Source: Candidatus Woesearchaeota archaeon
GTDB lineage: Archaea; Nanobdellota; Nanobdellia; SCGC-AAA011-G17; PNOQ01
Direction: 5' to 3'
DNA length: 64,000 nt
Assembly (NCBI GenBank): GCA_018663865.1
Contig: JABJPM010000030.1
Span: forward strand, 117-64,116
Every line of letters starts with the position of its first letter. The first letter of the stretch is position 1. This document shows, one piece after another, positions 25,227 to 53,990 of the stretch. The position numbers and the translations under genes are program-made. The notes under the pieces are model-generated. The model ran no database searches. It was not told the DNA's origin and was given only the letters and a program-made list of their open reading frames with translations.

Positions 25227-25831
25227 TTTTTTCTTTTATATCTTCCACGTTTGTTAACTTTCTCTAATCTTTGAATGGTTTCTTTATAATTAATTGATTT
25301 TTTGTAACCTTTTAGTGTGTTTTTTATTAATTCTTCGTCGTGTTTATAATGTTTTGATTCAAAAGCTTGTTGTAATAATTTTAAATCTGTTGCTTTGTCT
25401 TCTAATTTATGTGAAATTTTTCCTAATCCAAAATCTATGAAATAAACTTTATTATCTTTTAGAATCATATTAGAAGTTGTTAAATCTCCATGAATTATAT
25501 CATTATCATGCATTAATGCAATTTGTTCTCCAATTAATTTTGCTACTTTTTCTCTTTTATTTTTATTGTATGTACCTAATGTTGTTTTTAATAAATCTCC
25601 TTTTAGATATTCCATCACTATTTTAGAATTATTTTCTTCAACTTTTATTGGATTTGGAACATTAATTAGATCTTTAGCTTTTGTTAGAAGTTTGAATTCT
25701 CTTCTTGTTGGATATTTTGTTTTATTTTTATCAATTACTTTATGCCTGTAACCCTTTGTTATTCTTTCTTTAATTAAATTATTATCTTCTTTATAGAGAA
25801 TTGCTTCTGCACCTTTATGAAGGATTTTCAT
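25223..25831 (-). CDS. bud32: KEOPS-complex Bud32/PRPK small protein kinase
   Basis: 'IVMEYLKGDLL', 'IIHGDLTTSNMIL', 'YFIDFGLG', 'EDKATDLKLL' match Bud32. Confidence 0.85.
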   Translation of the reverse strand: MKILHKGAEAILYKEDNNLIKERITKGYRHKVIDKNKTKYPTRREFKLLTKAKDLINVPNPIKVEENNSKIVMEYLKGDLLKTTLGTYNKNKREKVAKLIGEQIALMHDNDIIHGDLTTSNMILKDNKVYFIDFGLGKISHKLEDKATDLKLLQQAFESKHYKHDEELIKNTLKGYKKSINYKETIQRLEKVNKRGRYKRKN

Positions 25832-28953: not shown

Positions 28954-29214
28954 ATGGGAATTTGCGATCATATTAATGGATGTGCTTATGAGCGTAAATC
29001 TGAGGATTATATATGTCAAAACATTTCTAATGCTTCTAATTGTAATTTATATAGAAAACTTTCTAAGTTGCGTTATAAAGGTCTCAAGTATGGTGTGCGT
29101 CGAAGAAGTCCGGAGCTTTCTAAGCTTATTCATGCAATTGAGATAAAGCAGCCTACTCAAGCAGAAGTTGAAGCATCTGTATTTGCTCTTAAACCTTGGT
29201 ACAGAATCATTTAA
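28954..29214 (+). CDS. Small Cys-containing protein, tandem paralog 1 (MGICD...)
   Basis: Shares N-terminus 'MGICD..ER.AY.RK..D..CQNI.N.NLYRKL' and upstream region with 29274-29510. Confidence 0.5.
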   Translation: MGICDHINGCAYERKSEDYICQNISNASNCNLYRKLSKLRYKGLKYGVRRRSPELSKLIHAIEIKQPTQAEVEASVFALKPWYRII

Positions 29215-38261: not shown

Positions 38262-38759
38262 TTGATTCTAAAGTTTAATATGGTCAGTGAAACTATAAAG
38301 GTTTTTTCTAAACACAATATGAAATATCATGGCGTTTTTGATTTGAGTAGATTATATTCTGAAATGAAAGGCTGGATTGTTGATAATGATTATTCCTTTG
38401 AAGAAAAAGAGCATGCAGATAAAGTAAAAGATAAAGGGCATGAGATAAAATATGTTTTATTGGGTGAGAAAAAAGTTACTGATTACATCAAGTACAAGGT
38501 TAGTATTGAAATAATCGCTGCTGAAGTAAATTCCCTTTCTGAAAATTTAGTTAGTGGAAAATTAAACTTTATTATTGATACTGATCTAGAATTGGATTAT
38601 AAAGAAAAATGGGGAATTTCTAGGATGGCCATGTTTTTCTTCAACATTTATAATAATTATTTGGTTAAGGATGAAATTGAAAATCATGAAGAAAAATTAT
38701 ATGATGAATCATTGAATTTGCAGGACTTGGCAAAAGATGTTTTGGAATTCAATCGTTAG
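38262..38759 (+). CDS. Member C of the about 163-aa paralogous family (see 17735-18753)
   Basis: Shared motifs GKLNFII / KEKWGISR. Confidence 0.5.
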   Translation: MILKFNMVSETIKVFSKHNMKYHGVFDLSRLYSEMKGWIVDNDYSFEEKEHADKVKDKGHEIKYVLLGEKKVTDYIKYKVSIEIIAAEVNSLSENLVSGKLNFIIDTDLELDYKEKWGISRMAMFFFNIYNNYLVKDEIENHEEKLYDESLNLQDLAKDVLEFNR

Positions 38760-38783: not shown

Positions 38784-39428
38784 ATGCGTATGAACAAAAG
38801 AGGGCAATTTTATTTAATTATTGTATTCATATTATCTTTAGCCATATTTGGAGTAACTTATCAAGTGAACAGTATTTCTGAGGCAGTTATTTGGGAGGAT
38901 TTCAATAGTGTTTCTCAAAATTATTTATCTGAATCAACGAAGGTTGCAAATAATGCTGTTAAAGAACATACACTTGTTGCTGACGAATTGGAATTGTTTT
39001 CCACCTCATTTCTAGAATATGCTCAGAAACGAAATCCAAATTTGGGATTGTTATTTGTATATGGGGATAAAGATAACATTTCTATTAAAAATTATTTGGA
39101 TTCTGCAGGGGCCGTCAATGGTGAAAAAATATTTGGAAACAATCAAGAATTTGTACAAGATGTCACAGTGCGAATTGGGGGAAAAGATTTCATTTACAAG
39201 GTCCCAATTACTTCGCAAAATTTTGGTGAAGATTGGAGTGGTCTAACTGTGGATAATAGTCCTTTCAATTTAAGTATCGCTGGAATTTTGCACCCTTTCA
39301 ATTTGACTTCTGGCAATCCAGAATTCAAAGTTATTTTGAGAACTGAAAGTGGAGATCTCAATGAGACGTATGGTTCTGGAGAATGGGATCCTAGTTTTTC
39401 ACCCAATATTCAACAGTTTACAAATTAG
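38784..39428 (+). CDS. Type IV pilin-like protein (class III signal peptide)
   Basis: 'MRMNKRGQ|FYLIIVFILSLAIFGV' N-terminus. Confidence 0.55.
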   Translation: MRMNKRGQFYLIIVFILSLAIFGVTYQVNSISEAVIWEDFNSVSQNYLSESTKVANNAVKEHTLVADELELFSTSFLEYAQKRNPNLGLLFVYGDKDNISIKNYLDSAGAVNGEKIFGNNQEFVQDVTVRIGGKDFIYKVPITSQNFGEDWSGLTVDNSPFNLSIAGILHPFNLTSGNPEFKVILRTESGDLNETYGSGEWDPSFSPNIQQFTN

Positions 39429-39441
39429 AAATATATAAAAG

Positions 39442-39978
39442 ATGGAAAAGATTAAACGAAATATGAAAAGAGGAATTTCACCTTTAATATCGTACATTTT
39501 AATTATTACTTTGTCAGTTAGTATTGGTTTTTTAGTTATAAATGCGTTAACTTCTGAAGTTGATAAATTTGAGATTGATCCGATGGTGGGATATTGCGAT
39601 GATGTAAGTATTTCTGTTGAGGGGGTCTGCCTTAATGGAAGTATGATTAAAGTAAATGTTACGAGTACAGGGTCTTTTTCTGTCCATAAGTTTTCTTTTG
39701 GGAGAGTGACCAATGTTTCTGCCTTGCAATGGTGTGATGTGAATTTGTCTGCATCCCCCTTAGATTTTGGGATTGAGACTATATATGGGATTAGTCGTGG
39801 TGCTGATTTTAATGTTGCTGTGAATGAGTCTACAAAAGCATGTGATTATTTGTATCCCACCTCTACTGCAGGAATTGCAGAAATTAGAGTAATGCCTTGG
39901 ATAAAACCTGAGGGAGAATTAATAAGTTGTAAAAATAAAGAAGTAATAATTAAGGAGGGAATAAATGGGAATTGTTAA
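39442..39978 (+). CDS. Archaeal type IV pilin
   Basis: 'MKRGISPLISYILIITLSVSIGFLV' class III signal. Confidence 0.65.
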   Translation: MEKIKRNMKRGISPLISYILIITLSVSIGFLVINALTSEVDKFEIDPMVGYCDDVSISVEGVCLNGSMIKVNVTSTGSFSVHKFSFGRVTNVSALQWCDVNLSASPLDFGIETIYGISRGADFNVAVNESTKACDYLYPTSTAGIAEIRVMPWIKPEGELISCKNKEVIIKEGINGNC

Positions 39979-40453
39979 TAAAAAAGGAGTTTCACCATTA
40001 GTAGCAAGTATATTGTTAGTTGCAATTGTTATTGTTATCGCATTTCTTGTATTTTGGTGGTATGGGGATTATGTTGCTGAGAATTTAGATAAATCTGGAA
40101 TAACTGCAGATCAAGCATGCATGCAAGATGTAGGATTTAGTATAACTAATGTTAATTGTTTACAAAATTCATTAGATACTAATAAATTAGTGTATTTTGA
40201 TTTAGAAAATACTGGTGACATTGGACTGAGTGCTTTCAAAGTAAGTATTGATGGCAATTTGGCTGATGATGTAAAATCAATATCTCAAGAAGTTAGGGAG
40301 GGTGTAACTAGCAAATTAAGTTTCGAGTATGATTTTGATGTTGTTGGAAATACTTTAACTACTGATATTGTTCCATTGATTTGGGCTGGTGGAGGTACAA
40401 AGTATTGCAAAGATAAAACTCAGACAATAAATGTGGTTTGTTTGTCTGCATAA
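39965..40453 (+). CDS. Archaeal type IV pilin
   Basis: 'NKKGVSPLVASILLVAIVIVIAFLV'. Confidence 0.7.
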   Translation: MGIVNKKGVSPLVASILLVAIVIVIAFLVFWWYGDYVAENLDKSGITADQACMQDVGFSITNVNCLQNSLDTNKLVYFDLENTGDIGLSAFKVSIDGNLADDVKSISQEVREGVTSKLSFEYDFDVVGNTLTTDIVPLIWAGGGTKYCKDKTQTINVVCLSA

Positions 40454-40492
40454 AGGTTAACTTTATATATTTCTTTTTTTATTTTTCTTTTT

Positions 40493-40903
40493 ATGTTTAA
40501 AAAAGGGGTTTCATCACTAATTGCTACTATTTTATTAATTGGAATTACTATTGGATTATCTTTATTGGTTGTCAATTGGGCCAAAGACAGTGTTGAAGAT
40601 CAAACCGATAATCCTGTTTTTGATATTGAAACTAGGGAAATTTGCAGGAGTGCTTTGACGGACTTTGAATTTGTTTTTGAGAGTGTGCGTGTCAATATTC
40701 AAAACAAAGGTCCAAATGATTTTAGTTCTGTTGCAATTCTTTGGACGGCCGAGAATGGTTCAATTGGATATAATTCTTTAACTTCGAGTATTTCTGGATT
40801 TGGATTCGGAAATGCTAGTTCTGATAGTGGAGTGTATTCTGGAGTGAAAGTAATTCCTTATGTTTCTGGATTGGAATGTGATGGATTCTATGTTGAAATT
40901 TAA
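40493..40903 (+). CDS. Archaeal type IV pilin
   Basis: 'MFKKGVSSLIATILLIGITIGLSLLV'. Confidence 0.7.
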   Translation: MFKKGVSSLIATILLIGITIGLSLLVVNWAKDSVEDQTDNPVFDIETREICRSALTDFEFVFESVRVNIQNKGPNDFSSVAILWTAENGSIGYNSLTSSISGFGFGNASSDSGVYSGVKVIPYVSGLECDGFYVEI

Positions 40904-40979
40904 ACCACAATATTTAAATAGATATAATTTTATTTTAGATATAATTATATTTAATTATAATTAAAAAGGAGGTAAGAAA

Positions 40980-41414
40980 ATGAATAATAAAAAAGGAGTT
41001 TCTCCATTAATCGCTACTGTGATGATTGTTGGAATTGTTATTGCTCTATCTTTTTTAGTTACTACTTGGATAACTGGTAGTGTTGAAGATACGATTGATG
41101 ATACTGATTGTGAAATGGAAGCTCAAGAGAGATGTAGTGAATTAACTAGTGCTGTGAAGTTATCTGTTAATGGTGCGGGTAATAAACTTATTGTTTCTAA
41201 TGAGGGTGCAACTGATATAAAGGGATTGAATGTAGTTCATTATGATAAGGATGGAAATTCTAATTCGGGGTCTGAATTTGATCTGAGTGCATATAAATCA
41301 AATATTAATACTAGTATAGGGAGTAGCGATATTGCTTTCAAAGTGTTTATGGTTGGAACTGATGCAGATGAATTATGTAGTGTGGAATGTTCTCCAGTAT
41401 TATTAGAACTATAA
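40980..41414 (+). CDS. Archaeal type IV pilin (recent paralog pair, copy 1)
   Basis: 'MNNKKGVSPLIATVMIVGIVIALSFLVTTWITGSVED'. N-terminal 40 aa and about 75 bp upstream are nearly identical to copy 2. Confidence 0.75.
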   Translation: MNNKKGVSPLIATVMIVGIVIALSFLVTTWITGSVEDTIDDTDCEMEAQERCSELTSAVKLSVNGAGNKLIVSNEGATDIKGLNVVHYDKDGNSNSGSEFDLSAYKSNINTSIGSSDIAFKVFMVGTDADELCSVECSPVLLEL

Positions 41415-41528
41415 TTTTTTCTTTTTTTCTTTAATTTTTTTCTTTTAATATTACCACAATATTCAAATAGATATAATCTTATTTTTTACATATTCATATT
41501 TAATTATAATTAAAAAGGAGGTGAAAAA

Positions 41529-41957
41529 ATGAATAATAAAAAAGGAGTTTCGGCATTAATTGCTACAGTGTTAATTGTTGGAATTGTTATTGCTCTATCT
41601 TTTTTAGTTACTACTTGGATAACTGGTACTGTTGAAAATGATATTGGTAATATTGATTGCGAAATTGAGGCTCAAAATCTTTGTTTAGAATTGACTGACG
41701 ATCTTAAACTTAGTTCTGGTACAAGCGCAGTGATTTTTACTAATGAGGGTCCAACTGATATAAAAAATATCACAATTGTACAATTTGCACTCAATGGGTC
41801 TACAATATCCAGTAATGATCCTTCCGGGATAAATAGTTATTCGAGTCATGCTCAATCAACTGACGCGGGCGCTTTCCAAATGAAGGCATTCATAACGGTG
41901 TTTGGTGAAGATGGGCTGTGTGAAGTTGGTTGTAATCCTGTTACAATCGAAATATAA
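41529..41957 (+). CDS. Archaeal type IV pilin (recent paralog pair, copy 2)
   Basis: 'MNNKKGVSALIATVLIVGIVIALSFLVTTWITGTVEND'. Confidence 0.75.
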   Translation: MNNKKGVSALIATVLIVGIVIALSFLVTTWITGTVENDIGNIDCEIEAQNLCLELTDDLKLSSGTSAVIFTNEGPTDIKNITIVQFALNGSTISSNDPSGINSYSSHAQSTDAGAFQMKAFITVFGEDGLCEVGCNPVTIEI

Positions 41958-42021
41958 TTTTTTCTTTTTTTCTTTAATTTTTTTAGAAAGATATTTAAAT
42001 GAAATTTTTCATTTTTAGTGT

Positions 42022-42531
42022 ATGTATAAGAAGGGTGATATTTGGATTTCTGCAATTTTATATTTTGCTTTGGGCGTCATTCTGTTATCCATAATTTTGG
42101 CTGCAGGTTTGCCGGCCATAACTAAAATGAAAGATGATTTCACTGTTAAGCAAACTAAGGATTTAATGATTAATTTAGATGGGAGTATTAGGACAGTTTA
42201 TCATGAAGGTCCCGGGTCCCAAAGGATTGTTAGTTTGGATATTGGAAGGGGAGATTTTTTTATAAAAGAAGATTTGGAAGTTATTGAATGGAGTATTGAA
42301 AGTTCTGCATTAATTTCTGAAGTTGGGGTGGAAATTCAAGAAGGAAATTTATTCATATTAACAGAGGATTCTGCAGTTAGTGGAAAGTACTTAGTAAATT
42401 TAAAATTAGATTATACGGATGTCAATCTTAATTTATCCTATTCTGGTCCAGAAAGACTTTCTGGAGAGGTTGGATTATCAATTGCAAATGGAGGAGAAAG
42501 CCCGATTAATGTGGTTATGACTCAATTATGA
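42022..42531 (+). CDS. Pilin-like / pilus assembly membrane-anchored protein
   Basis: 'MYKKGDIWISAILYFALGVILLSIILAAGL' N-terminal helix; in-operon position. Confidence 0.45.
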   Translation: MYKKGDIWISAILYFALGVILLSIILAAGLPAITKMKDDFTVKQTKDLMINLDGSIRTVYHEGPGSQRIVSLDIGRGDFFIKEDLEVIEWSIESSALISEVGVEIQEGNLFILTEDSAVSGKYLVNLKLDYTDVNLNLSYSGPERLSGEVGLSIANGGESPINVVMTQL

Positions 42532-44123
42532 AAAAATTACATGAAATGTCAAAAAAAGAATTACCGGATTTACCTAGTAAATCCCATACAGTATTTAATA
42601 TTGAACCAAATACGGTGAAACCAGAGTTTCCAGATGTTAATAAGGAAGAGATAAATTTTAGATATGGTTTATTGAAACCATATGCTTATGCCCACATTTA
42701 TTGGGATGAAAAATTAAAGGAATTGATTTATTATGTTGATGAGCCAGAATTAAATTCAGAAGAAAAAAAAACTCTGATATTATTAGAGGATGGGATTAGA
42801 GAATTAATCAATATCAGTTATCTGAGTCTTGAAAAAGATGAGAAGATGATTGAGTATTTAGAGAAAAATGTTAAAGTTTTGTTAAGCGAATTGAGGATTA
42901 CCCCTCCGCGAGATTCTTTTTTGAAATTAATGTATTATATATACAGGGATTTTGTTGGAATGGGAAAAATTGAACCTTTGCTGAATGATTATTTTATAGA
43001 AGATATAGAATGTAATGGTGCGGGATATCCATTGTATGTAGTGCATAGAAAATATCGAAATATTAAAACTAATGTTATTTACAAAGATGTCCCAGAATTA
43101 GCTAGTTTTGTTGAAAAGTTGGCTCAAAAAACTGGGAAATATGTTTCTTATGCAACCCCCTTATTGGATGGGGCGTTGCCCGATGGATCAAGAGTAAATG
43201 CGACCTATACAGGGGATATCTCTTCTAGGGGTCCGACTTTCACAATAAGAAAATTTACTAAAAATCCTTGGCCACCAACACAATTGATCAAGTTTGGAAC
43301 CATCTCTCCAAATATACTAGCCTATTTGTGGATGGCTGTTGAATATGGGAAAAATATAATGGTTATCGGTGGAACTGGTTCTGGAAAAACAACTTTGCTC
43401 AATGCTTTAACGTTTTTCATCCCTCCTCAAGCAAGAATTGTATCTATTGAGGATACAAGAGAATTAAATTTGGAGCACTCGAATTGGTTGCCTTCTGTTT
43501 CTAGGGAAGGAGTTGGATTGGCAAATCTTGTTGGTCAAAAATATGGGGAAGTAACAATGTTTAATTTACTTAAGGAAAGTTTTAGGCAGAATCCAGATTA
43601 TGTTATTGTTGGTGAGATTAGGGGAGAAGAGGCCTATGTTTTGTTTCAGGGAATGGCATCCGGACATCCTTCTTTTGGTACTATGCATGCAGATTCTGTA
43701 GATACGATGGTTAAACGTTTAGAAACCCCGCCTATTAATCTATCTGCGTCATTGGTTGAAACTATGGATGTTGTGATTTCTATGACTTCCACAAAAAGAG
43801 GTGGAAAATCTGTTAGAAGATTAAAAGATGTTAATGAAATTATCAGTATTGGAAAAGAAGGTGGAAATATTGTAAATAAACCATTTATTTGGAATCCAAT
43901 TAGCGATAAATATGATTATGTGGCAGAATCACATATTTTTAATAAATTGATTAAACAACAAGGATTGAGTGAAGAGAATATTATCCAAGAATGGAAAAAT
44001 AGAACATTGTTATTGATTGCAATGTATAATGCTGGAATGTTTGATTTTCATGAAGTGCAAAAAGTAATCGATACTTATTATAAATCTCCAGATGGGGTTT
44101 TGCATAAATTTGGGATAAAATGA
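42528..44123 (+). CDS. Type IV pilus/secretion ATPase (FlaI/TadA/VirB11 superfamily)
   Basis: Walker A 'GGTGSGKTTLLNAL', 'VGEIRGEE', His box region. Confidence 0.85.
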   Translation: MKKLHEMSKKELPDLPSKSHTVFNIEPNTVKPEFPDVNKEEINFRYGLLKPYAYAHIYWDEKLKELIYYVDEPELNSEEKKTLILLEDGIRELINISYLSLEKDEKMIEYLEKNVKVLLSELRITPPRDSFLKLMYYIYRDFVGMGKIEPLLNDYFIEDIECNGAGYPLYVVHRKYRNIKTNVIYKDVPELASFVEKLAQKTGKYVSYATPLLDGALPDGSRVNATYTGDISSRGPTFTIRKFTKNPWPPTQLIKFGTISPNILAYLWMAVEYGKNIMVIGGTGSGKTTLLNALTFFIPPQARIVSIEDTRELNLEHSNWLPSVSREGVGLANLVGQKYGEVTMFNLLKESFRQNPDYVIVGEIRGEEAYVLFQGMASGHPSFGTMHADSVDTMVKRLETPPINLSASLVETMDVVISMTSTKRGGKSVRRLKDVNEIISIGKEGGNIVNKPFIWNPISDKYDYVAESHIFNKLIKQQGLSEENIIQEWKNRTLLLIAMYNAGMFDFHEVQKVIDTYYKSPDGVLHKFGIK

Positions 44124-45163
44124 AATATGGATTTAAGAAGAAAAATGAAATTGAGAAAGCGATCCCAGTAGATGCAATTCAGATTTCTCAACGTGAAAAA
44201 AAGAAATTTATGAAAGAGTTAAAGTTGGGGGATAAACAAATAAAAAAAGCCCTTAAAAAAGAAACAACAAAGAAAAAAGTTACTGATACGGTAGTTTATA
44301 AAACAAATCCCTATTCGAAATTATCTAATTTTTTTATGGAAAATTTATCGTTTGAAGTTATTAAAAAAAATCCGCCTTATGTCAAACCTTTGTTGAATGC
44401 ATTATCTTCTTCAAATGTTAGAATTCTATCAAGGACATATTTGAGTGTAATTTTATTTACGGCTTTAATTTCATTGCCAATATTTTTAATATCACTATAT
44501 ATATTTACAAAAAGTATTTTGTTATCTTTATTCTTTTCTTTATTTGGCACAGTTTCTGTTTTTGGAATTGTTTATGGATATCCATTCATGATTTCTAATG
44601 ATAGAAAGGTTAAAATTGATCAAGAACTTGTTTTCGGAATTGCACATATGGCTTCGATTGCTGGGTCTGGTGCTCAACCAATAAAAATTTTTAAATTATT
44701 GGTAGATTCAAATGAATACGACGAATTGAAAGAGGAACTAAAGAGGGTTTTAAATTATGTCAATGTTTTTGGACTCAATTTATCAAATGCTTTAAGGGAA
44801 GTTGCAAAATCTACTCCTTCTGGAGACTTGAGAGAGTTGTTTAATGGGATGGTTTCCACAATTGAAACTGGGGGAGATATCAGGCAATATTTGCAAGACA
44901 AATCTTCAGATAGTTTAAATAAATATAGGTTGGATCAGAAGAAGAGATTAGAAACTATCGCAACATATTCTGAATTTTATACTGGGTTTTTGATTGCTGG
45001 CCCATTATTGTTTATTGTTACTTTTGCCATATTGGAAAAAATTTCTCCAGAAGTATCTGGCATTCCTATTGCCTTATTGGCAAAATTGGGAACATTTGTT
45101 TTGTTGCCATTTTTGAATATACTGTTTATATTATTTTTAGAAACTAACCGGAGTGTGTCTTAA
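44120..45163 (+). CDS. Pilus assembly platform membrane protein (TadB/TadC-FlaJ-like), part 1
   Basis: Polytopic membrane protein; overlaps the ATPase stop (ATGA). Confidence 0.55.
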   Translation: MKYGFKKKNEIEKAIPVDAIQISQREKKKFMKELKLGDKQIKKALKKETTKKKVTDTVVYKTNPYSKLSNFFMENLSFEVIKKNPPYVKPLLNALSSSNVRILSRTYLSVILFTALISLPIFLISLYIFTKSILLSLFFSLFGTVSVFGIVYGYPFMISNDRKVKIDQELVFGIAHMASIAGSGAQPIKIFKLLVDSNEYDELKEELKRVLNYVNVFGLNLSNALREVAKSTPSGDLRELFNGMVSTIETGGDIRQYLQDKSSDSLNKYRLDQKKRLETIATYSEFYTGFLIAGPLLFIVTFAILEKISPEVSGIPIALLAKLGTFVLLPFLNILFILFLETNRSVS

Positions 45164-46018
45164 ATGAAATTTAAAACAAGACACGCAATTGGAATATTTG
45201 TTGGTGCATTAATACTGTTATTCGCCATATTTGTATTATATCCTCTTGAATCAAGATGGTTTAAACCTATGTTGGGAATTGCATTTCTTGCAGCAGTCAT
45301 TCAGTTTTGGTTAGATGTCCTTGCTGAAAATAAATCCAACAAAGATGTGGAGGCAAACTTTTTAGAATTTGTTAGGGCGGTTTCAGATGGTGCAAAAACT
45401 GGTATTCCAATTCCAAAAGCAATTACTGAATTAAAAAATAATGATTTTGGTGCATTAACACCATACATAAAAAAATTGATTTATCAAATTGAATGGGGAG
45501 TATCCCTTAGGGAGGCATTTTTGAGGTTTTCAAAAGATACTAAAAATCCTTTGATTAAACGTTCTATGGCAATTGTTATTGAGGCCGAACAAAGTGGAGG
45601 GCATATTGATAAAGTGCTTGAATCCATTACTACTTCTGTTTTGGAAATTAAAAAAATTAAAGATGAACGAAGGGCAAATATTTTCTCTCAAGTTTTGCAA
45701 GGATATTTTATTTTCATAATGTTTGTTGGAATTATGATTGCTTTGCAAGTGTTTTTATTACCTCAATTAACGCAAGTTGGGGGGAGTGTTTTACAAGGAG
45801 TTAGTCTTGAGGATACTGGCGCTTCAGCATCTACTGCGATATATGCAACATCTATTGATTTTAATATGATTTTCACATTTTTGTTATTGATTCAAGGATT
45901 TTTTACTGGATTAATGGTTGGAAAGTTTTCAGAAGGAAGTTTAAAGTTTGGATTAAAACATTCTCTTGTTTTAATGTTTATTGGGTATATGGCATTCACT
46001 ATTGCCGTAGGATTTTAA
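45164..46018 (+). CDS. Pilus assembly platform membrane protein (TadC/FlaJ-like), part 2
   Basis: Polytopic membrane protein directly following part 1. Confidence 0.55.
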   Translation: MKFKTRHAIGIFVGALILLFAIFVLYPLESRWFKPMLGIAFLAAVIQFWLDVLAENKSNKDVEANFLEFVRAVSDGAKTGIPIPKAITELKNNDFGALTPYIKKLIYQIEWGVSLREAFLRFSKDTKNPLIKRSMAIVIEAEQSGGHIDKVLESITTSVLEIKKIKDERRANIFSQVLQGYFIFIMFVGIMIALQVFLLPQLTQVGGSVLQGVSLEDTGASASTAIYATSIDFNMIFTFLLLIQGFFTGLMVGKFSEGSLKFGLKHSLVLMFIGYMAFTIAVGF

Positions 46019-46019
46019 A

Positions 46020-46748
46020 ATGAATAAGAAAGGTTTATCTCATGTGGACTGGGTAATAAGTTTTGGAATATTTGTTATATTTGTTTTGCTGTTATTTATT
46101 TGGTTTGGCCCATCTTTAACAACAGAGTTTTCAGATGAATATTTGGGTGAAATTGCTGTTGAAGGGTTTAAGGATGCTAGCTATCATGAAGTATATAATT
46201 ATCCAATATTTTTTGAAGTTGCTAATGAAGTGCATGATTGCGAGATTAATGTTAAGGGCATGAGTGGTTTAGGAATTAATATTGAGAATATATTTTTGAT
46301 TGATAATAATGATTCTGAGGTGAGCAATGTGACTATTCATAATGATAATTTAATATTTTTGACAAGTGTTAATCCCGGGAGCGTATATGAGTATAATATG
46401 TATGTTTCTGATTATTTTAATAATACTCATCCTTCTGCCAATGGATCCTCGGTTGAATATAATGCGACCCTTGGCGTAGGTGAACGATTATATGGATTTT
46501 CTGAAAAAAGATTTAATGATCTTTCTTCATTAGATTATTCTGATTTTAAAGCGGAATTGAAATATCCTTTAAATAGGGATGCGAGTGTTTATGTTTATGA
46601 TTCTGTTGACTTTTCAACATTATTATTTAATTATAATGTTAGTGAACCTACTGCAGATGATAATGTTTATGTAGTTAGTTGGTCAGATGTATTAATAAAT
46701 GAAAGTGGGGGAATTGAACAAATTACTGTTTTGATCAAAACATGGTAA
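46020..46748 (+). CDS. Pilin-like protein
   Basis: 'MNKKGLSHVDWVISFGIFVIFVLLLFIWF' class III-like N-terminus. Confidence 0.55.
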   Translation: MNKKGLSHVDWVISFGIFVIFVLLLFIWFGPSLTTEFSDEYLGEIAVEGFKDASYHEVYNYPIFFEVANEVHDCEINVKGMSGLGINIENIFLIDNNDSEVSNVTIHNDNLIFLTSVNPGSVYEYNMYVSDYFNNTHPSANGSSVEYNATLGVGERLYGFSEKRFNDLSSLDYSDFKAELKYPLNRDASVYVYDSVDFSTLLFNYNVSEPTADDNVYVVSWSDVLINESGGIEQITVLIKTW

Positions 46749-47119
46749 ATAAAAGGGGATATATACAAACTTTGGAGGCGGTTGTTGCCATACTCATATT
46801 ATTAAGTGTTATTTTATTTTCTATTTCTTTGAGGGGAGTGGATGAACCTCGGGTCCCGGAAGATATTGCATTACTGCAAAAAAATATATTGGGCCAAGTT
46901 CAAAATAATCAGGAATATAGGGATTGTGTTTTTTATGTGGACACTTGTTCAGGATTTTCTAGTTTATTTGATTTAATTCCCGAAACTATTGATAAGAATT
47001 ATACTGTTGATGATTCGGTTTTTATCAAAACAGATGTTAACCTTTATGTTGATAGTGTTATAATTGTCAATGAAACAAATTCTGCCAAGACTTTCACATT
47101 ATATCTTTGGAGAAAATAG
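46742..47119 (+). CDS. Pilin-like protein (minor pilin candidate)
   Basis: 'MVNKRGYIQTLEAVVAILILLSVILFSI'. Confidence 0.55.
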   Translation: MVNKRGYIQTLEAVVAILILLSVILFSISLRGVDEPRVPEDIALLQKNILGQVQNNQEYRDCVFYVDTCSGFSSLFDLIPETIDKNYTVDDSVFIKTDVNLYVDSVIIVNETNSAKTFTLYLWRK

Positions 47120-47180: not shown

Positions 47181-47813
47181 ATGATAAAAAAATTCAAAGT
47201 TATTTTTAATAAATTAATCGGTAGATTATTGCGTAAAAAATCAGGTATTAAATTAGGGTTTTATGGTCCGCCAAATGCGGGTAAAACTACTTTGGCGAAT
47301 CGAATTTGCATGGATTGGATTGGCGAAGAAATGGGGGGTGCATCAAATGTGCCTCATGAAACTAGAGAAATTAAAATTAAAGAAAAAGTTGAAATTGAAA
47401 GTAATGGTAAAAAATTATCTTTTAATCTTATTGATACTCCTGGGATCGCAACACAGATCGATTATGAGGATTTTTTAAAACATAAGATAAGTAAAACTAA
47501 AGCAAAAAAAAGGGCCAAGGAAGCAACAAAAGGAGTCATAGAGGCAATTAAATGGCTTGACGATGTGGATTGTGTTGTTGTCGTTTTAGATTCTACTAAG
47601 AACCCATATTCACAAGTTAATATTACAATAATTGGAAATTTAGCTGCTAGAAATATTCCTGTTTTGATTGTTGGGAATAAAGTTGATTTGAAAGCTTCCA
47701 AATTAAAGAAGATAGAATCTGCATTTCCACAGTACGATGTGATTGGAATTTCTGCCAGTAAGGGCAAAAATATAGAAAACTTTTATAAGGAGGTATTTCG
47801 ATTAGTTAAATAA
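47181..47813 (+). CDS. Small Ras/Arf-like GTPase (archaeal predicted GTPase)
   Basis: G1 'GPPNAGKTTLANRI', G3 'DTPG', G4 'GNKVDL'. Confidence 0.7.
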   Translation: MIKKFKVIFNKLIGRLLRKKSGIKLGFYGPPNAGKTTLANRICMDWIGEEMGGASNVPHETREIKIKEKVEIESNGKKLSFNLIDTPGIATQIDYEDFLKHKISKTKAKKRAKEATKGVIEAIKWLDDVDCVVVVLDSTKNPYSQVNITIIGNLAARNIPVLIVGNKVDLKASKLKKIESAFPQYDVIGISASKGKNIENFYKEVFRLVK

Positions 47814-47814
47814 A

Positions 47815-48201
47815 ATGTTATCTTTTCAATATTTACCTCATAGAGAATATTCCGGCTTGACAACGGATGAAAAATTAAAGAAAGTTTTTCGAATTGTTAA
47901 GAAGGATAAAATTGTGTTAATGCAAGGCAGACTTAAGCCACACGAGGAAGCACAATTAATTGAAAGAACTATGGGTCAGATTACAAAAAATTTTTCAGGT
48001 ATATCTTTTTGTACTATTTTGCCAGAACAAACTGGGAAAGGCAAGAAAAATAAAGATGAGAAAAAGGTTCCAATGATGTTAAAATCTGCATTCTATAATG
48101 CATTTTTAAGAAATAGAGATACATTGACAATAATTGGCCCTGCCAATTTAGTAAAAGAAATAAGGAAAAATCCAAATAGGATTGATCTAATGATGGATTA
48201 A
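47815..48201 (+). CDS. Small conserved protein co-transcribed with the GTPase
   Basis: 1-nt spacing after GTPase gene; 128 aa. Confidence 0.35.
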   Translation: MLSFQYLPHREYSGLTTDEKLKKVFRIVKKDKIVLMQGRLKPHEEAQLIERTMGQITKNFSGISFCTILPEQTGKGKKNKDEKKVPMMLKSAFYNAFLRNRDTLTIIGPANLVKEIRKNPNRIDLMMD

Positions 48202-48202
48202 A

Positions 48203-48574
48203 ATGCCACACCAATGCGTAAGATGCGGAAATTTTCATGAGGATGGAGCAAAAGAGTTATTGAGTGGATGTTCTTGTGGGAGTAAATTCTTTTTCTTTAT
48301 GAGCGATAAAGCTTTGAAAAAAGTTAAAAAAATTTCTACTGAGCTATCTAAAGAAGATCGATTACAAATTGAAGAGGACATAAAAGAAATTGTGGATATT
48401 AAAAAAGATGATGAACCAATAATTTTAGATATAGAATCTGTTAGAGTTATTAAGCCTGGAAAATATGAATTAAACTTGGTTGATTTATTTCGAGGCAAAC
48501 CTGTTGTCTATAAGTACGGTAATGGGAAATACATGATTGACCTTGCATCCGCGTTTGGCGAAGACAAAATTTAG
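48203..48574 (+). CDS. Zinc-ribbon protein co-transcribed with the GTPase
   Basis: 'CVRCGNFH...CSCGSKFF' zinc ribbon. Confidence 0.4.
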   Translation: MPHQCVRCGNFHEDGAKELLSGCSCGSKFFFFMSDKALKKVKKISTELSKEDRLQIEEDIKEIVDIKKDDEPIILDIESVRVIKPGKYELNLVDLFRGKPVVYKYGNGKYMIDLASAFGEDKI

Positions 48575-48680: not shown

Positions 48681-49943
48681 ATGAACAAATATTTGAAAAT
48701 GTTAACAGTTGTAATGTTGCTTTTAGTAACAGCTTTCAATGTTTCGGCTACAGAAGATGCTGAGATATCAACTGTGACTATCGATGATATTGAATTCGAT
48801 TTTGATTCAAATGGTACTAATTACATTTATGCTCCTGTTTATTTAGGTTCTACTTTTGAAGTAGTTGTTGAATGGACTGGTCTTGATGTATTGAATGGTA
48901 CTATTCTTGAAGATGTCGAAATTGAAGTAGAATTCGATGGTGATGAGTATGAAAGTGAAGAATTTGATATTGAATCAAACCATATCGGAAGGCAAGTTTT
49001 CGAAATCGAAATAGCTGATGACGAAGATTTACTTGAGGGAACTCAATATATTACTATTACTATGACTAGTGATAATGGTACTCCTTTGGATATTGTAAGT
49101 ATTGAATTAGATATCAAAAGGGAAAGACATTCAATAGAAATCTTTGATGTTAATTTCAGAAATGGATTACAAGCAAATGCTGGTGAAATTTTCACTGCAA
49201 GTATTGGTGTGTCCAATGAAGGAAGAGAAAACGAAGAAGATGTTTATGTTGTTATGAACATTCCTGAATTAGGTTTGACTACTCGAACTGATAGATTTGA
49301 TTTATTTACAGAAGACTACAACTTTACAGATGATGATGATGAATATAAGATGTACAAGCAATTATTGGTTAATCTACCATTGACTGTGCCATCCGGTGTA
49401 TATGATGTACACTTTAAGGTATACTTTGATGATGGAGATAACTACAACGAAGAAGTTTATACTTTGGTAGTTGGTGCTGGTCAAGCTTATGAATCTCAAA
49501 TCAGTATGGATACACAAAGCCAAATTGCTGGAGCAGGCGATGCTATAGTTTACAAGGTTTTGTTTGAAAATCCAAATGTAGAGTATGATATTGAAGTTAT
49601 TGGTTTAAACTTTGGAACATATGAAGTTAGAATCGAAGAAAACATGGCTTACATTTTTGTTTCTATAAATGAAGATGTAAATCTTGGTGAATATAATTTC
49701 AATGTTGCAGTTAAAGCTGGATCAAATGTTTTAGAAGATTTTGATGTTTCAACTAGAATTACAAACAATGCCAACTCTGGTAATAGTGCGAATTTTAGTG
49801 ATGCAAAACAAGGTCTTGAAATTGGTTTCGCTGTTTTATTGGTGATCTTAGTTATTTTAGGTATCGTTTTGGTAGCTAAAAGATTAGGAAAAGGCGATGA
49901 ATTAGAAGAACCTATGCTTGATGAAGATCAAACATACTACTAA
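48681..49943 (+). CDS. Acidic secreted surface protein with signal peptide and C-terminal TM anchor
   Basis: 'LKMLTVVMLLLVTAFNVSATED' signal; 'GFAVLLVILVILGIVLVAKRLGK' anchor; strong GGAGGG SD. Confidence 0.6.
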   Translation: MNKYLKMLTVVMLLLVTAFNVSATEDAEISTVTIDDIEFDFDSNGTNYIYAPVYLGSTFEVVVEWTGLDVLNGTILEDVEIEVEFDGDEYESEEFDIESNHIGRQVFEIEIADDEDLLEGTQYITITMTSDNGTPLDIVSIELDIKRERHSIEIFDVNFRNGLQANAGEIFTASIGVSNEGRENEEDVYVVMNIPELGLTTRTDRFDLFTEDYNFTDDDDEYKMYKQLLVNLPLTVPSGVYDVHFKVYFDDGDNYNEEVYTLVVGAGQAYESQISMDTQSQIAGAGDAIVYKVLFENPNVEYDIEVIGLNFGTYEVRIEENMAYIFVSINEDVNLGEYNFNVAVKAGSNVLEDFDVSTRITNNANSGNSANFSDAKQGLEIGFAVLLVILVILGIVLVAKRLGKGDELEEPMLDEDQTYY

Positions 49944-50055: not shown

Positions 50056-50742
50056 ATGTTTGGAATTTTATTTTTGGCTGTGATTATGATTTCTAGTTGT
50101 AGTCCTGAAATGAGTCCTGAAAGTAAAAGTTTGCAATTAAATGTGCCTAGTGGCGGTGGCGCGACTCGCATATGCGAGGATAATGATGGTGGAAGAAATT
50201 ATTATCTCCAAGGAGATGTTTATTATCACTCTGCCCCTGAGAAGAGATTTACAGATACTTGTGTAAGTGATAATGGTGATGGGACCCCTGTTGAGTCTTC
50301 AAGGTTATTGAAGGAATATTATTGCGATGATTTTTCTGAAATTATGCATATTAATTATGGTTGTGTTAATGGATGTTTAGATGGAGTTTGTTTAGATGAA
50401 CCAAGTTATATGGATCCTACTCAATGTGTTTTTCAAATTGCCACGGAAGGATATGGGGATCAGGATGTTGTAGTGGGTTGTGATCAAGATCAATTTGTTG
50501 GAAAAATTACCCACATTTTATGCCCAGTTTCAGATGATAATCATTATTTGATTTCTACAGGATGGATGACTAATACATTGCCTTTTGAAATGGGCTATAC
50601 TTGTGTAGATTCAAATACTGGTGAATGGAAAAAACCTACTAGAATATCGGCATATTGTTGTAATATACTTGATTATGATTTAGCTGGAAAAGAAATTCAT
50701 AAAACTAGTATAGATAAATCGGGGAATTTAATTTCCTCTTAA
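50056..50742 (+). CDS. Cys-rich lipoprotein with conserved leader (family copy 1)
   Basis: 'MFGILFLAVIMISSCSPEMS' lipobox. 5' region is about 95% identical to 53547-53645 and 63941-64000. The upstream ATG is out of frame because of an A8 versus A7 tract. Confidence 0.6.
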   Translation: MFGILFLAVIMISSCSPEMSPESKSLQLNVPSGGGATRICEDNDGGRNYYLQGDVYYHSAPEKRFTDTCVSDNGDGTPVESSRLLKEYYCDDFSEIMHINYGCVNGCLDGVCLDEPSYMDPTQCVFQIATEGYGDQDVVVGCDQDQFVGKITHILCPVSDDNHYLISTGWMTNTLPFEMGYTCVDSNTGEWKKPTRISAYCCNILDYDLAGKEIHKTSIDKSGNLISS

Positions 50743-50878: not shown

Positions 50879-53497
50879 ATGAGTGATAAAAAATTAAGTT
50901 TAGTATTATTGATGTTATTTATTTTACCTATTGCATTTGCAAGTAATAGTTTTACGTTTTATTCTGGGGCGGAATTCGAAAGTGTATGTCCTAGGTCTAC
51001 TGGATTATATTCAGATGTAATTGAGAACAATGGGGATACCGTATTGGATTTTAGTGTTTCTGCTTCTGGCAGTGCATCATCTTTTTCTACTAGTGTCCCA
51101 ACAGGATTCACATTATATCCTGGAGAGATAAAAAATATTTATACATATGTTACTCCAACATCTAGTGTTGATGTTGGGAATTATGTTTTAACATTGGATG
51201 TAAATGCTAATGGAATTTCTAAAACAATTAATCATGATGTAATTGTGGGAGATTGTTATGGTTATACATTTGATGTATTAGATGAACAAAAAAACATTTG
51301 CCCATGCGGTGATGAAAAATTTGGATTTGAATTAACTAATTTTGGAGAATATTCCGAAACTTATGAATTGAGTATTGGCGGATCATATTCTAATGAAGTT
51401 GTTTTAAGTCAAAATATTGTATCCTTAATTTCTGGCGGAAGTAAAATAATTTATGCATATGTGCAATCTTCTTGCGATAGTGCCCCTGGAGATTATGAAT
51501 TTAGTATAAATGTTGATCCGGTATCTGGAACTTCTGTAAAGTCTCAAGTTGCTTTGTTGAAGATTGATGGTTGCTATGAATTTGATATTAATACTGAAAA
51601 AGATTTAATTAATATTTGTGAACATTCTGTAGAAAATATACCTATCACTGTTGAAAATACTGGTATGTCTTCGAATGTTTTCAATTTCGATTTGGATGGG
51701 CCTTTGTGGGCTAATTTAGAGAAAAATAAATTGAATATTGTTTCTGGTTCAGAGGGAATAGTAAATTTAGAATTAGTACCGGATTATGGTGTTGAAGGGA
51801 GTTTCCAAATTACATTTAGTGCAACTCCTGAAAATGGTGTTGTAAAAGCAGTTAATGTATTTGATGTTAATGTTAAGAAATGTTACGATATTTCTGTTTC
51901 ATTAGAAAAAGATGAAGACAAAATCTGTAATGCATTAGAAAATACCTACAATGTTTTGGTTAGAAATCAAGGAGAATTTGAAAAAGAATTTTTTGTTGAT
52001 ATTGATGGGCCAAACTGGGTAAGCGTAGATGAAACCTCTGTTTTATTGGGTGCTGGAGAAGAAAAGCAATTGACTTTGAGAGTTTTCCCACAGTACAATA
52101 CTCCTGCTGCAGAATACAATGTCGAAGTTAGTGTAACTGCAAAAGATAGTAATAAAATAGCAAGTAAAGATTCAATGGTTATTGAAACGGCGACTCAAAC
52201 TGAATGTTATGATGCATTATTGAGTTTGGAAGAAAAATCATTAAATATTTATTATGATGCTAGTGCAACAATTCCGATTATTGTTGAAAATAAAGGGGCA
52301 GATGTGGCTACATATAGTTTGTCTGTAAGTGGGACTGCATCAAATTTTGTGTATTTAAATCCATCCACAATTGATGTAGAACAAGGTAAATCTGAAATTG
52401 TATATCTTTATGTTGCACCTTCAAATAAGGTTTCCAATGGAGATTATGAGGCTAGCATCGCAGTGAGATTGGATGATTCTACAATTTTAGCATCTGACGA
52501 TATTAAAATAACTGTGACTGATAGTCCAGAGGATATTCCTGAATATTCTCCTGAAGATGAAAATTCAAAATCTTTCTTTGAAAAGATTATTGAACTTTTC
52601 TCCAATTTAGTCGGAGGATCTGAAGATGTTATTGATACACCATTATTGAATATTACTCCGGAAGTAATTGAAGAAGAAACTCCAGAAGTAATTGAAGAAG
52701 AAACTCCAGAAGTAGTCGGGGAATTGATGAATATTGGGGAAGAAATCGATTTTGAAGTTGGAGAAGAAGATCACGTAATGAAAATTAAAGAACGATCTGG
52801 CGAAGTATTATTGATGGAATCAAATTCAGTGTATGTTCAATTATATCCTGGAGATGTTAAGAAAGTAGATGTCAATGGTGATAGTGCAGAAGATATCGAA
52901 TTAACATTTAGCGGATTCGTTGGCGATAAAGCAGATGTAAGTTATGTTTTATTGGAACAACCAGAATTGATTGATGATTCTGGAATGGAAGATATTAGTG
53001 GAGAGGTAGTCAAAGAACCTGAAGATGATGGTAATGGTTTCTTTGGAAATTTTTTCAATAGCTTAAAATCAATTTTCGTTGGATTTGGTGGAGCAATTGT
53101 TTCATATGGATTACAAATTGGAATCTTCATTTTGCTTATTGCTGCAATTGTGGCAATGAACAAAACAAAATTTTGGGAAAAAATTGCAAAATTCTTTGAA
53201 GAAGAAGTTGAAGAAGGAGTTGTTTCAAAAAGTGAAGAAACTCCGCTTGAAGTCAAAGAGGAAAAAAAGGTTGAATCTCTTGATGCGAAAGAGGTTGATG
53301 ACCTTGTTATAGAATCTTTTGATGATGAAAAAGAAATAAAAGAATCTGAGGAAGAAACTAAAGAAGAACCTGCGAAAAAAGAAGTAAAACCTAAGATAGA
53401 AAAAAAAGCCAAAAAAGAAAAAAAACCTAAGAAAAAGAAAGAAGAGCCAAAAGAAGAAGAAGAAGATGAGTTCGTTATCGAGTTTGATGACGATTAA
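50879..53497 (+). CDS. Very large (872 aa) surface protein: signal peptide, repeated beta-rich domains, C-terminal TM helix and K/E-rich tail
   Basis: 'LVLLMLFILPIAFASNS' signal; recurring 'GDCY/KCYD/DGCYEFD' domain starts; 'TPEVIEEE' x3; TM 'GLQIGIFILLIAAIVAM'. Confidence 0.6.
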   Translation: MSDKKLSLVLLMLFILPIAFASNSFTFYSGAEFESVCPRSTGLYSDVIENNGDTVLDFSVSASGSASSFSTSVPTGFTLYPGEIKNIYTYVTPTSSVDVGNYVLTLDVNANGISKTINHDVIVGDCYGYTFDVLDEQKNICPCGDEKFGFELTNFGEYSETYELSIGGSYSNEVVLSQNIVSLISGGSKIIYAYVQSSCDSAPGDYEFSINVDPVSGTSVKSQVALLKIDGCYEFDINTEKDLINICEHSVENIPITVENTGMSSNVFNFDLDGPLWANLEKNKLNIVSGSEGIVNLELVPDYGVEGSFQITFSATPENGVVKAVNVFDVNVKKCYDISVSLEKDEDKICNALENTYNVLVRNQGEFEKEFFVDIDGPNWVSVDETSVLLGAGEEKQLTLRVFPQYNTPAAEYNVEVSVTAKDSNKIASKDSMVIETATQTECYDALLSLEEKSLNIYYDASATIPIIVENKGADVATYSLSVSGTASNFVYLNPSTIDVEQGKSEIVYLYVAPSNKVSNGDYEASIAVRLDDSTILASDDIKITVTDSPEDIPEYSPEDENSKSFFEKIIELFSNLVGGSEDVIDTPLLNITPEVIEEETPEVIEEETPEVVGELMNIGEEIDFEVGEEDHVMKIKERSGEVLLMESNSVYVQLYPGDVKKVDVNGDSAEDIELTFSGFVGDKADVSYVLLEQPELIDDSGMEDISGEVVKEPEDDGNGFFGNFFNSLKSIFVGFGGAIVSYGLQIGIFILLIAAIVAMNKTKFWEKIAKFFEEEVEEGVVSKSEETPLEVKEEKKVESLDAKEVDDLVIESFDDEKEIKESEEETKEEPAKKEVKPKIEKKAKKEKKPKKKKEEPKEEEEDEFVIEFDDD

Positions 53498-53567: not shown

Positions 53568-53990
53568 ATGAAAAAAATAATGTTCGGAATTTCATTTTTA
53601 GTTGTGATTATGATTTCTAGTTGTAGTCCTGAAATGAGTCAAAGATATGATCTCGGAATTACGTCCAATGAATGCATTGATTTGGATGGAGATGGATTTG
53701 GAGATGAATGCCCATTGGGAATCGATTGTAATGATGAAGATGATTCTAGGTGGTTTTGGAGACCTTTCTATCTTGATGAAGATCAGGATTCTTATGGTGC
53801 TGAAGAATTAGTTACATTTGAATGTTGGGGAAATTTTGAAAATTCGCAATATCCGTTGGATGAGATGGCTTTTAATAAATTAGATTGTGAGGATTTAAAT
53901 AGGAATATTAATCCTGGTGCAAAGGAAATTTGTGGCAATGGGGTTGATGAAAATTGTGACGGATTCGACCTTAGATGTTTGAAGAAATAA
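53568..53990 (+). CDS. Cys-rich lipoprotein with conserved leader (family copy 2)
   Basis: 'MKKIMFGISFLVVIMISSCSPEMSQ'. Confidence 0.6.
   Translation: MKKIMFGISFLVVIMISSCSPEMSQRYDLGITSNECIDLDGDGFGDECPLGIDCNDEDDSRWFWRPFYLDEDQDSYGAEELVTFECWGNFENSQYPLDEMAFNKLDCEDLNRNINPGAKEICGNGVDENCDGFDLRCLKK

Follow-up and report, generated by a model that had tools for sequence, protein, structure and literature searches.

A predicted non-archaellum type IV pilus locus with a mosaic pilin gene pair and amino-acid-changing pilin polymorphism in a marine woesearchaeon

A stretch of 64,000 nucleotides (nt) from a Candidatus Woesearchaeota archaeon (GCA_018663865.1, contig JABJPM010000030.1), here called the window, carries at positions 38784-47119 twelve co-oriented and tightly packed open reading frames (ORFs) on the + strand, which probably constitute a complete type IV pilus system of the non-archaellum kind, in which two adjacent pilin genes (g5 and g6) are mosaics of young and old sequence and the pilin surfaces appear to be under diversifying selection. 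Among the type IV pilus systems of archaea the locus is unremarkable and of a kind already known; the new element is the polymorphism of its pilin-like genes, which is exclusively nonsynonymous. To our knowledge, the recognition and holding of partner cells by DPANN archaea is largely unknown and most of the lineages are uncultured. In positions 16284-58574 of the window, g5 above all and then g2 and g12 are nearly the only genes with protein differences between near-identical strains, and are thus concrete candidates for the contact or recognition surface of the cell, or for a virus receptor under attack.

Gene Content and Assembly Machinery

The locus is arranged as seven pilin-like genes (g1-g7), an assembly ATPase, two polytopic membrane proteins and two further pilin-like genes (g11 and g12), the numbers giving the position in the locus (Table 1). 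The ATPase has a Walker A motif GGTGSGKTTLLNAL (GGTGSGKT) at residue 281, and its matches in the Protein Data Bank (PDB) include Archaeoglobus fulgidus GspE2 (2oap, 6.7e-115), FlaI (1.9e-80) and CpaF (1e-48). Platform proteins A and B align to positions 6-244 and 318-544, respectively, of the 555-position FlaJ model and, since each has a single T2SSF domain matching one half of FlaJ, the platform is a split FlaJ/TadC.

The best NCBIfam models are FlaI for the ATPase and FlaJ for the platform proteins, as an archaellum locus devoted to motility would have them; however, the ATPase reaches 391.8 bits with FlaI (NF058587), below the equivalog cut-off of 550, and the platform proteins score only 51-109 with FlaJ models that require 400-570. 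The Pfam models of archaellin, FlaF and FlaG do not match any of the nine pilin-like proteins at E<=1; FlaH, FlaF, FlaG and archaellin gave no match with the locus proteins or with the remaining window ORFs that were tested, about 20 smaller ORFs being screened by motif only, and no KaiC-like FlaH is present among the P-loop ORFs of the window. The absence of these components, together with an ATPase under the FlaI cut-off, indicates a non-archaellum locus and makes an archaellum scarcely tenable.

A preliminary description of the window had proposed a twelve-gene locus with one secretion ATPase, two polytopic platform proteins and eight or nine class III pilins, and with neither a prepilin peptidase nor FlaH, FlaF or FlaG; this inventory is confirmed as far as the window ORFs were tested, the twelve ORFs falling exactly on the positions given there and the pilin count being nine. 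Its conclusion that the locus encodes a pilus and not an archaellum is supported on account of the missing FlaH, FlaF, FlaG and archaellin and of the ATPase score, but not on account of the missing peptidase, which is uninformative in this respect (see below).

With the ATPase as query, seven loci of archaea were retrieved at 55-85% identity, all in metagenome-assembled genomes (MAGs) of Woesearchaeota, Pacearchaeota or archaea without further classification, the eighth match being a distant Clostridium relative. In the four closest loci (L001, L002, L007 and L003) the order g1-g2-g3-pilin(s)-g7-ATPase-platform A-platform B-g11-g12-oapABC is kept, and the identities to these loci, in the same order, are 86/89/66/44% for g7, 85/85/~76/69% for the ATPase, 80/80/62/41% for g1, 58/59/40/32% for g11 and 38/39/36/29% for g5. 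The values of 29-39% for g5, compared with those of g1, g7 and the ATPase, make the major-pilin position by far the fastest-evolving one.

Prepilin Signals and Pilin Fold

Class III signal peptides are characterized by a charged residue at -2, a Gly, Ala or Ser at -1 and an H-domain following the cleavage site (PMC4371748). A simple rule-based screen, which is not the FlaFind program itself, found these features in 9/9 of the pilin-like proteins of the locus; in each, a short charged stretch leads up to K/R-G, and ~20 hydrophobic residues come next. The motif is retained in the orthologues of related loci, and the screen recovered from the other 56 kb only one class III-like ORF, of 70 aa and probably spurious. 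The H-domain is common to g3-g6, and the TIGR02537 model (arch_flag_Nterm, cut-off 20) recognises g3 with 35 bits and g5 with 26 bits. The Pfam matches of the nine proteins are all sub-threshold and regard Pilin_N, DUF7266 and DUF7288.

A word-indexed homologue search with g5 gave 3 proteins only, and a hidden Markov model scan with a profile built from g5, g6 and a metagenomic relative gave 942 representatives in a library of 1.84 billion proteins; the family alignment contains a conserved KKGISPLIATVLIIGFTIVLAVLVITWI helix, four conserved Cys residues and an NxG motif. Structure modelling, which the preliminary description had recommended, supports the assignment of g5 and g7 as pilins. The AlphaFold model of g5, obtained with the family alignment as input, has a predicted local distance difference test (pLDDT) score of 92.3 and consists of a 50-residue helix (residues 9-58) and a beta-sandwich head, while the model of g7 (pLDDT 82.5) has a helix at residues 4-62 and a beta domain, so that both have the "lollipop" shape of pilins. 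The only full-length PDB match of g5 in Foldseek is the type IV pilus subunit of Haloferax volcanii (8fj5; probability 1.0, template modelling score 0.48/0.51), with 17% identity in the fold alignment, the remaining matches covering the FN3-like head only; the fold search with g7 against the PDB gave no meaningful match. The family profile of g5 and g6, compared with the PDB, matches 8fk7 (3e-8), Natrinema PilA2 (8gi2, 6e-5) and 8fj5 (4e-3), as well as 8rey and Iho670.

The same kind of machinery might build something other than an adhesive fibre, such as a short pseudopilus, a bindosome-like assembly or a pilus for DNA exchange or uptake (Ups, Com), given that type IV filaments serve diverse functions in archaea (PMC4858521; bioRxiv 10.64898/2026.04.22.720090), that the locus has many minor pilin-like genes and that the BasE and UpsF/UpsA models give sub-threshold matches. 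These scores are, however, far under the cut-offs and lower than those of FlaI/GspE2; substrate-binding proteins with class III signals and DNA-processing genes are absent in and beside the locus, and the fold and family of g5 are those of filament-forming PilA pilins, for which reasons a non-adhesive assembly appears quite unlikely.

Within the locus, sizeable upstream spacers are present only before g5 and g6. Both genes have a BRE/TATA-like element (TFB-recognition element and TATA box) of the form ACCACAATATT(T/C)AAATAG about 60 nt upstream of the start codon, a core promoter motif of which the window has only two exact copies, and the Shine-Dalgarno (SD) sequence AAAAAGGAGGT before the start codon; a T-rich tail follows the stop codon in both. 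We infer that g5 and g6 are monocistronic and strongly expressed, and that g1-g4 and g7-g12 form operons. With their own promoter, SD and likely terminator, this predicted expression and their PilA-like character, g5 and g6 are the candidates for major pilins. The g5-type BRE/TATA and SD are kept upstream of the L001, L002, L007 and L003 orthologues, the proteins of which are only 29-39% identical, and part of the upstream similarity between g5 and g6 is therefore functional conservation.

Origin of the g5/g6 Pair

The two genes lie in a tandem unit with a period of 549 bp, in which 86% of positions agree between 40904-41147 and 41453-41696; of the 76 nt that precede the start codons 67 are identical, as are 34 of the N-terminal 40 aa, and the 32 nt formed by the stop codon and T-rich tail are the same in both copies, while the heads have 37% aa identity. 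Several independent assemblies, with an identity of at least 99.7% to the window, have the same arrangement, which rules out an artefact of assembly. The preliminary description had recognised the shared N-terminus and upstream sequence, and had concluded that the duplication is very recent and that its pattern is consistent with diversifying duplication.

The synonymous divergence (dS) between g5 and g6 is ~0.15 in the first 40 codons and ~1.3-1.5 in the remaining ones; between the window and L001, dS is ~0.95-1.2 in 5/6 genes (ATPase, g1, g7, platform B and oapA; ~1.0-1.2 in four of them) and 0.53 in the thermosome gene. The g5 and g6 heads are thus about as far apart as genes from different species. 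A codon-identity test, which considers only the residues identical in both proteins and counts those with a different codon, found differing codons at 3/32 of these residues in the N-terminus (9%) and at 18/37 in the head (49%), with p = 5e-4. The same test is homogeneous (10/35 in the N-terminus, 15/47 in the head) when g5 is compared with P0002, its orthologue in a sister population (L009-L011) whose flanks have ~85% nucleotide identity to the window and which has a single pilin between g4 and g7. The head of g5 is 47% identical to that of P0002, and the head of g6 is 37% identical to either, being an outgroup to the other two; no g6-type head closer than these is present in the 1.84-billion-protein library.

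These comparisons indicate that the heads of g5 and g6 parted before the lineages of the window and of L009 split and that the 5' modules are younger than this split, which points to an old pair in which only the 5' module was homogenised recently. The mechanism is probably 5' gene conversion, that is, a concerted evolution of the module comprising promoter, signal peptide and helix; alternatively, g6 may be of recombinant origin and carry an old head behind a new front. Had the entire 549-bp unit of promoter, gene and terminator been duplicated in tandem very recently, with extremely fast divergence of the heads under positive selection afterwards, this would account for the near-identical 5' module and terminator and for the single gene found at this position in L009-L011 and also in L001, L002 and L007, and would agree with the positive selection on pilin heads indicated in the population. 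Positive selection, however, leaves the codons of unchanged residues alone, yet almost half of them differ in the head; moreover, the g5 head is nearer to the pilin of the sister population than to g6, and a recent whole duplication is therefore an unlikely origin of the pair. Thus, the claim of a very recent duplication applies to the promoter and the first 40 codons and fails for the heads, which are old, and the diversifying pattern is not borne out by the comparison of the paralogues, which gives a dN/dS of ~0.5 with saturated synonymous sites. More generally, near-identical fronts and a shared promoter in duplicated pilins need not mean recent duplication.

Silent, promoter-less cassettes of the pilE/pilS type were not found; both copies are complete ORFs that have a promoter, an SD and a terminator of their own, and partial copies did not turn up. 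An apparent g6-deletion variant (L019) was discarded because it is a scaffold with a gap of Ns at the 32-36-nt repeat and gives no evidence for a deletion.

Variation in Natural Populations

Variation of the pilins across metagenomes, another check proposed at the outset, was followed on contigs collected by exact-protein look-ups. Those of ~20 assemblies match the window across 36022-58574 with an identity of at least 99.7%, and another ten cover 16284-37624; the part surveyed is thus 16284-58574. In the pilin-like genes, 24 distinct single-nucleotide variants (SNVs) were counted, all nonsynonymous in at least one reading frame, and 0 synonymous ones: twelve in g5, five in g2, two in g12 and one each in g1, g3, g4, g6 and g7. 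All those of g5 are located in the head, four of the five in g2 (each of which is nonsynonymous in at least one frame) are grouped within codons 128-140, and those of g12 are D67G and S70P. The ATPase and both platform genes (3.5 kb), g11 and oapC have no SNVs at equal or higher coverage, the contig coverage of the ATPase being ~17x, and a single synonymous SNV is found in oapA. Elsewhere in the surveyed part there are 6 nonsynonymous and 17 synonymous SNVs (Fisher p = 3.7e-8 against the pilin-like genes; 1e-6 without the anchor genes), and this difference between 24:0 and 6:17 indicates diversifying selection specifically on the pilus surface. Regarding the other predicted surface proteins, the one of 420 aa encoded at 48681-49943, with a signal peptide and a C-terminal transmembrane segment, has one nonsynonymous and one synonymous SNV; the remaining ones downstream of the locus have zero.

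Several alleles affect defined positions. In the MAG GCA_018669415.1 (L015/L038), eight g5 head codons (89-116) are altered by ten substitutions, 0 of them synonymous, in the middle of the contig, and 9/10 of the changes fall at first or second codon positions. A diversity-generating retroelement was considered for this allele and rejected, as there is neither a second copy of the variable segment nor a template repeat in the window; no reverse transcriptase was found among the window ORFs scanned. N-glycosylation sequons are lost by N128D in g2 and by N110D/S112I in g5. In two assemblies 99.8% identical to the window (L012 and L013), g6 carries G6E (position 41545), which hits the -1 residue of the predicted cleavage site; processing should consequently be blocked, and g6 may be off in these strains.

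Three divergent clusters elsewhere in the window, at 25346-25472, 28965-29004 and 52425-52595, lie at or near contig ends and were left out of the nonsynonymous and synonymous counts. Each is found in a single population contig, two of them abutting the contig end, and they are probably strain-mixture chimeras or the result of recombination with a divergent strain. Their presence, together with the fact that some assemblies may come from the same samples, would fit an artefactual origin of the nonsynonymous-only SNVs by consensus noise, chimeras of strain mixtures or relaxed constraint. Nevertheless, the clusters are mixed (37 nonsynonymous, 28 synonymous) as compared with 24 to 0 in the pilins, the pilin SNVs are mid-contig and several recur in multiple assemblies, and relaxed constraint would still yield synonymous changes; hence, we consider an artefact to be very unlikely and retain diversifying selection.

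The selective agent may be the recognition of a partner or host, and evasion of viruses would be an equally good driver. The pilins are a good candidate for the contact surface of the cell, and host attachment may be the role of the pilus. A bolder proposal, which we hold only tentatively and with more doubt than conviction, is that ongoing positive selection in this near-clonal population acts mainly, or perhaps solely, on the pilus surface, with the module of promoter, signal peptide and helix serving as a recombination anchor for swapping heads or for keeping expressed paralogues. If true, this would parallel, in an archaeon, the antigenic or host-range variation of pilins, and g5/g6, g2 and g12 would become candidates for what determines the specificity of a DPANN archaeon for its host (or virus).

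Proposed Mechanism and Its Evaluation

In the mechanism proposed here, the nine prepilin-like proteins would be inserted through Sec, a class III signal peptidase with its gene outside the window would cleave them behind the K/R-G motif, and the FlaI/GspE2-type ATPase would polymerise the pilins on the platform formed by the two half-size FlaJ/TadC proteins. In particular, g5 and g6 would be the major pilins, while g1, g2, g3, g4, g7, g11 and g12 would be minor pilins with a part in priming, capping or decorating the fibre. In g5 and g6, the module of promoter, signal peptide and N-terminal helix would have been homogenised recently, most likely by gene conversion, after the exposed heads had diverged long before; in wild populations the pilin-like genes, g5 above all, gain only differences that change amino acids.

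Several points weigh against this explanation. The filament itself has not been seen; Pilin_N (PF07790, DUF1628) reaches only 12-16 bits, under its cut-off of 25.2, and the Foldseek E-value of g5 with 8fj5 is weak (7e-3). A polytopic ORF with the GxGD motif of prepilin peptidases, including EppA-like ones, is absent from the 64 kb; the gene of the class III signal peptidase is usually unlinked, however, and its absence from the window consequently says nothing on pilus versus archaellum. As for gene conversion, a three-sequence site-pattern test is not significant (p = 0.35 over all sites), a recount by hand limited to the repeat unit being marginal, and the N-terminal module is strongly conserved between species, so that purifying selection explains part of the 5' similarity; for these two reasons gene conversion is rated as probable only. 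Finally, the SNVs were called from consensus contigs, and the events are not all independent, since 10/24 of them are on the single L015/L038 allele and assemblies possibly share raw data.

Features of the Locus and Its Surroundings

The features of the locus are collected in Table 1.

Table 1. Predicted genes and expression signals of the pilus locus (positions in the window)
Feature	Position	Strand	Description	Support or remark
g1	38784..39428	+	214 aa (MRMNKRG|QFYLIIVF...), predicted minor pilin	N-terminus resembling class III, retained by orthologues
g2	39442..39978	+	178 aa (..KRG|ISPLISYIL), 6 Cys, 5 sequons, predicted exposed minor pilin	
g3	39965..40453	+	162-aa pilin, PilA-type N-terminus (KKG|VSPLVASILLV)	TIGR02537
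g4	40493..40903	+	136-aa pilin (KKG|VSSLIATILLIG)	
g5 promoter and leader	40904..40979	+	BRE/TATA ACCACAATATTTAAATAG (40904-40921)	SD AAAAAGGAGGT (40963-40973)
g5	40980..41414	+	144-aa PilA-like pilin, candidate major pilin	TIGR02537, AlphaFold, Foldseek
g5 stop codon and T-rich tail	41410..41441	+	TATAATTTTTTCTTTTTTTCTTTAATTTTTTT	Likely archaeal oligo-T terminator, putative role
g6 promoter and leader	41453..41528	+	BRE/TATA ACCACAATATTCAAATAG (41453-41470)	SD (41512-41522)
g6	41529..41957	+	142-aa paralogue of g5	
g6 stop codon and T-rich tail	41953..41984	+	Second copy	Identical to 41410-41441
TATA-like element	41990..42002	+	GATATTTAAATGA, ~20 nt before g7 start	Putative g7-g12 operon promoter
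g7	42022..42531	+	169-aa pilin-like (KKG|DIWISAILYF)	4-nt overlap with ATPase start
Assembly ATPase	42528..44123	+	531 aa, FlaI/GspE2 family	T2SSE (PF00437) 2e-31
Platform protein A	44120..45163	+	347 aa, one T2SSF domain (PF00482)	FlaJ N-terminal half
Platform protein B	45164..46018	+	284 aa, one T2SSF domain (PF00482)	FlaJ C-terminal half
g11	46020..46748	+	242-aa pilin-like (KKG|LSHVDWVISFGIF), 7 sequons	
g12	46742..47119	+	125-aa pilin-like (KRG|YIQTLEAVVAIL)	

Among the pilin-like genes, g7 is the most conserved; 39 homologues were found, with a match to the Pfam family DUF7289 in 14/33. A Gln at +1 is present in g1 and in the g7 orthologues of L003-L006. The orthologues of g4 in L001 (6054-6890), L002 (6057-6905) and L007 (4679-5761) have 278-360 aa in total, with an extra Cys-rich C-terminal extension of 140-220 aa, possibly an adhesin tip domain, of which g4 of the window has no remnant. 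In L002 the extension contains a sub-threshold MopE-like motif. A similar motif (Cu-binding_MopE, 5e-10) is present in the second of two predicted lipoproteins encoded at 50056-50742 and 53568-53990, which have near-identical signal peptides, MFGI(L/S)FL(A/V)VIMISSCSPEMS, and different Cys-rich bodies. Between the two, positions 50879-53497 encode a predicted surface protein of 872 aa with a FixG_C Ig-like domain.

Upstream of g1, a 165-aa cytoplasmic protein with no family match is encoded at 38262-38759, ending 24 nt before g1; it is syntenic in L001, L002 and L007 and absent in L003. Directly downstream of the locus, positions 47181-48574 encode an OapA-like GTPase, OapB (PF09846) and OapC (PF09845), and L001, L002, L003 and L007 have them in the same place; as the set is origin-associated, a replication origin is possibly nearby. 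In oapB, a nonsense allele (48125 T>A, L104*) occurs on a single population contig (L018/L042). A second secretion-ATPase-like gene, at 1081-2865 on the - strand, encodes a 594-aa protein with PIN, T2SSE-like ATPase and KH domains, which is of an RNA-associated type and not a pilus ATPase.

The neighbours of the locus are housekeeping genes (thermosome, SRP54, FtsY, signal recognition particle RNA, 5S rRNA, ribosomal proteins, SMC and Elp3), which places the pilus locus in the core chromosome. The relatives, which are MAGs of Woesearchaeota and Pacearchaeota, support a small AT-rich marine Woesearchaeota (DPANN) archaeon as the source of the window, in agreement with the preliminary description, which had supposed a small AT-rich archaeon.

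Comparison with Known Systems

Gene clusters that combine a single ATPase with two platform genes and numerous pilins have already been described, also in DPANN archaea ("system 1" and some 4A loci; bioRxiv 10.64898/2026.04.22.720090), and two tadC genes are found in clade 1 and in many clade 2 loci (Makarova 2016), while system 2 has a single platform gene (bioRxiv 10.64898/2026.04.22.720090).

The pilins resemble those of the PilA1-6/PilB3/PilC3 system of Haloferax volcanii (clade 2, "system 2"), with which they share the K/R-G/A|(V/I)SP(L/V)I... N-terminus of TIGR02537/Pilin_N type. PilA1-6 are paralogous pilins with an almost identical H-domain and different heads (PMC4371748), as are several pilins of the window, and the only full-length structural match of g5 is the subunit of the Haloferax pilus (8fj5); furthermore, homologues of g7 match DUF7289 and the ATPase is nearest to the A. 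fulgidus GspE2/FlaI type. In contrast to H. volcanii, where pilA1-6 are unlinked, the pilins are encoded here inside the machinery locus, the platform is split in two genes, and the heads have four conserved Cys residues and very low sequence identity (17% in the fold alignment, as given above).

The Epd pilus of Methanococcus maripaludis ("system 1", with the ATPase EpdL and the platform proteins EpdJ and EpdK) has the same clustering of one ATPase, two platform genes and many class III proteins, and the +1 Gln of g1 and of the L003-L006 g7 orthologues is like that of EppA substrates. The major pilin of Epd, however, has ~70 aa, no globular head, Gln at +1 and Glu at +5, whereas g5 and g6 have 142-144 aa, a beta-sandwich head and V/I-S-P at +1 to +3; moreover, the window has no EppA-type peptidase and its ATPase is much nearer to GspE2/FlaI than to CpaF. 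Taken together, with a TIGR02537/Pilin_N-type N-terminus, the 8fj5 fold and a GspE2/FlaI-like ATPase, pilins and ATPase look more like euryarchaeal PilA/PilB than like Epd, whereas the split platform is a hallmark of system 1.

Bacterial Tad/Flp systems (CpaF, TadB, TadC) are similar in having a single ATPase, with none set apart for retraction, and two platform proteins that contain one T2SSF domain apiece; they differ in that the pilins of the window are of the archaeal class III type with large heads and not Flp, that the ATPase matches CpaF with 1e-48 as against 7e-115 for archaeal GspE2, and that secretin and other Tad accessory genes are absent. Diversification of bacterial pilins is exemplified by the antigenic variation of Neisseria pilE/pilS and by the PilA allele groups of Pseudomonas. 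The complete promoter-bearing copies of g5 and g6 are unlike the silent cassettes of pilE/pilS; the likeness to the bacterial cases lies in the conserved N-terminal module, in the hypervariable exposed heads and in the concentration of amino-acid-changing polymorphism in the pilins.

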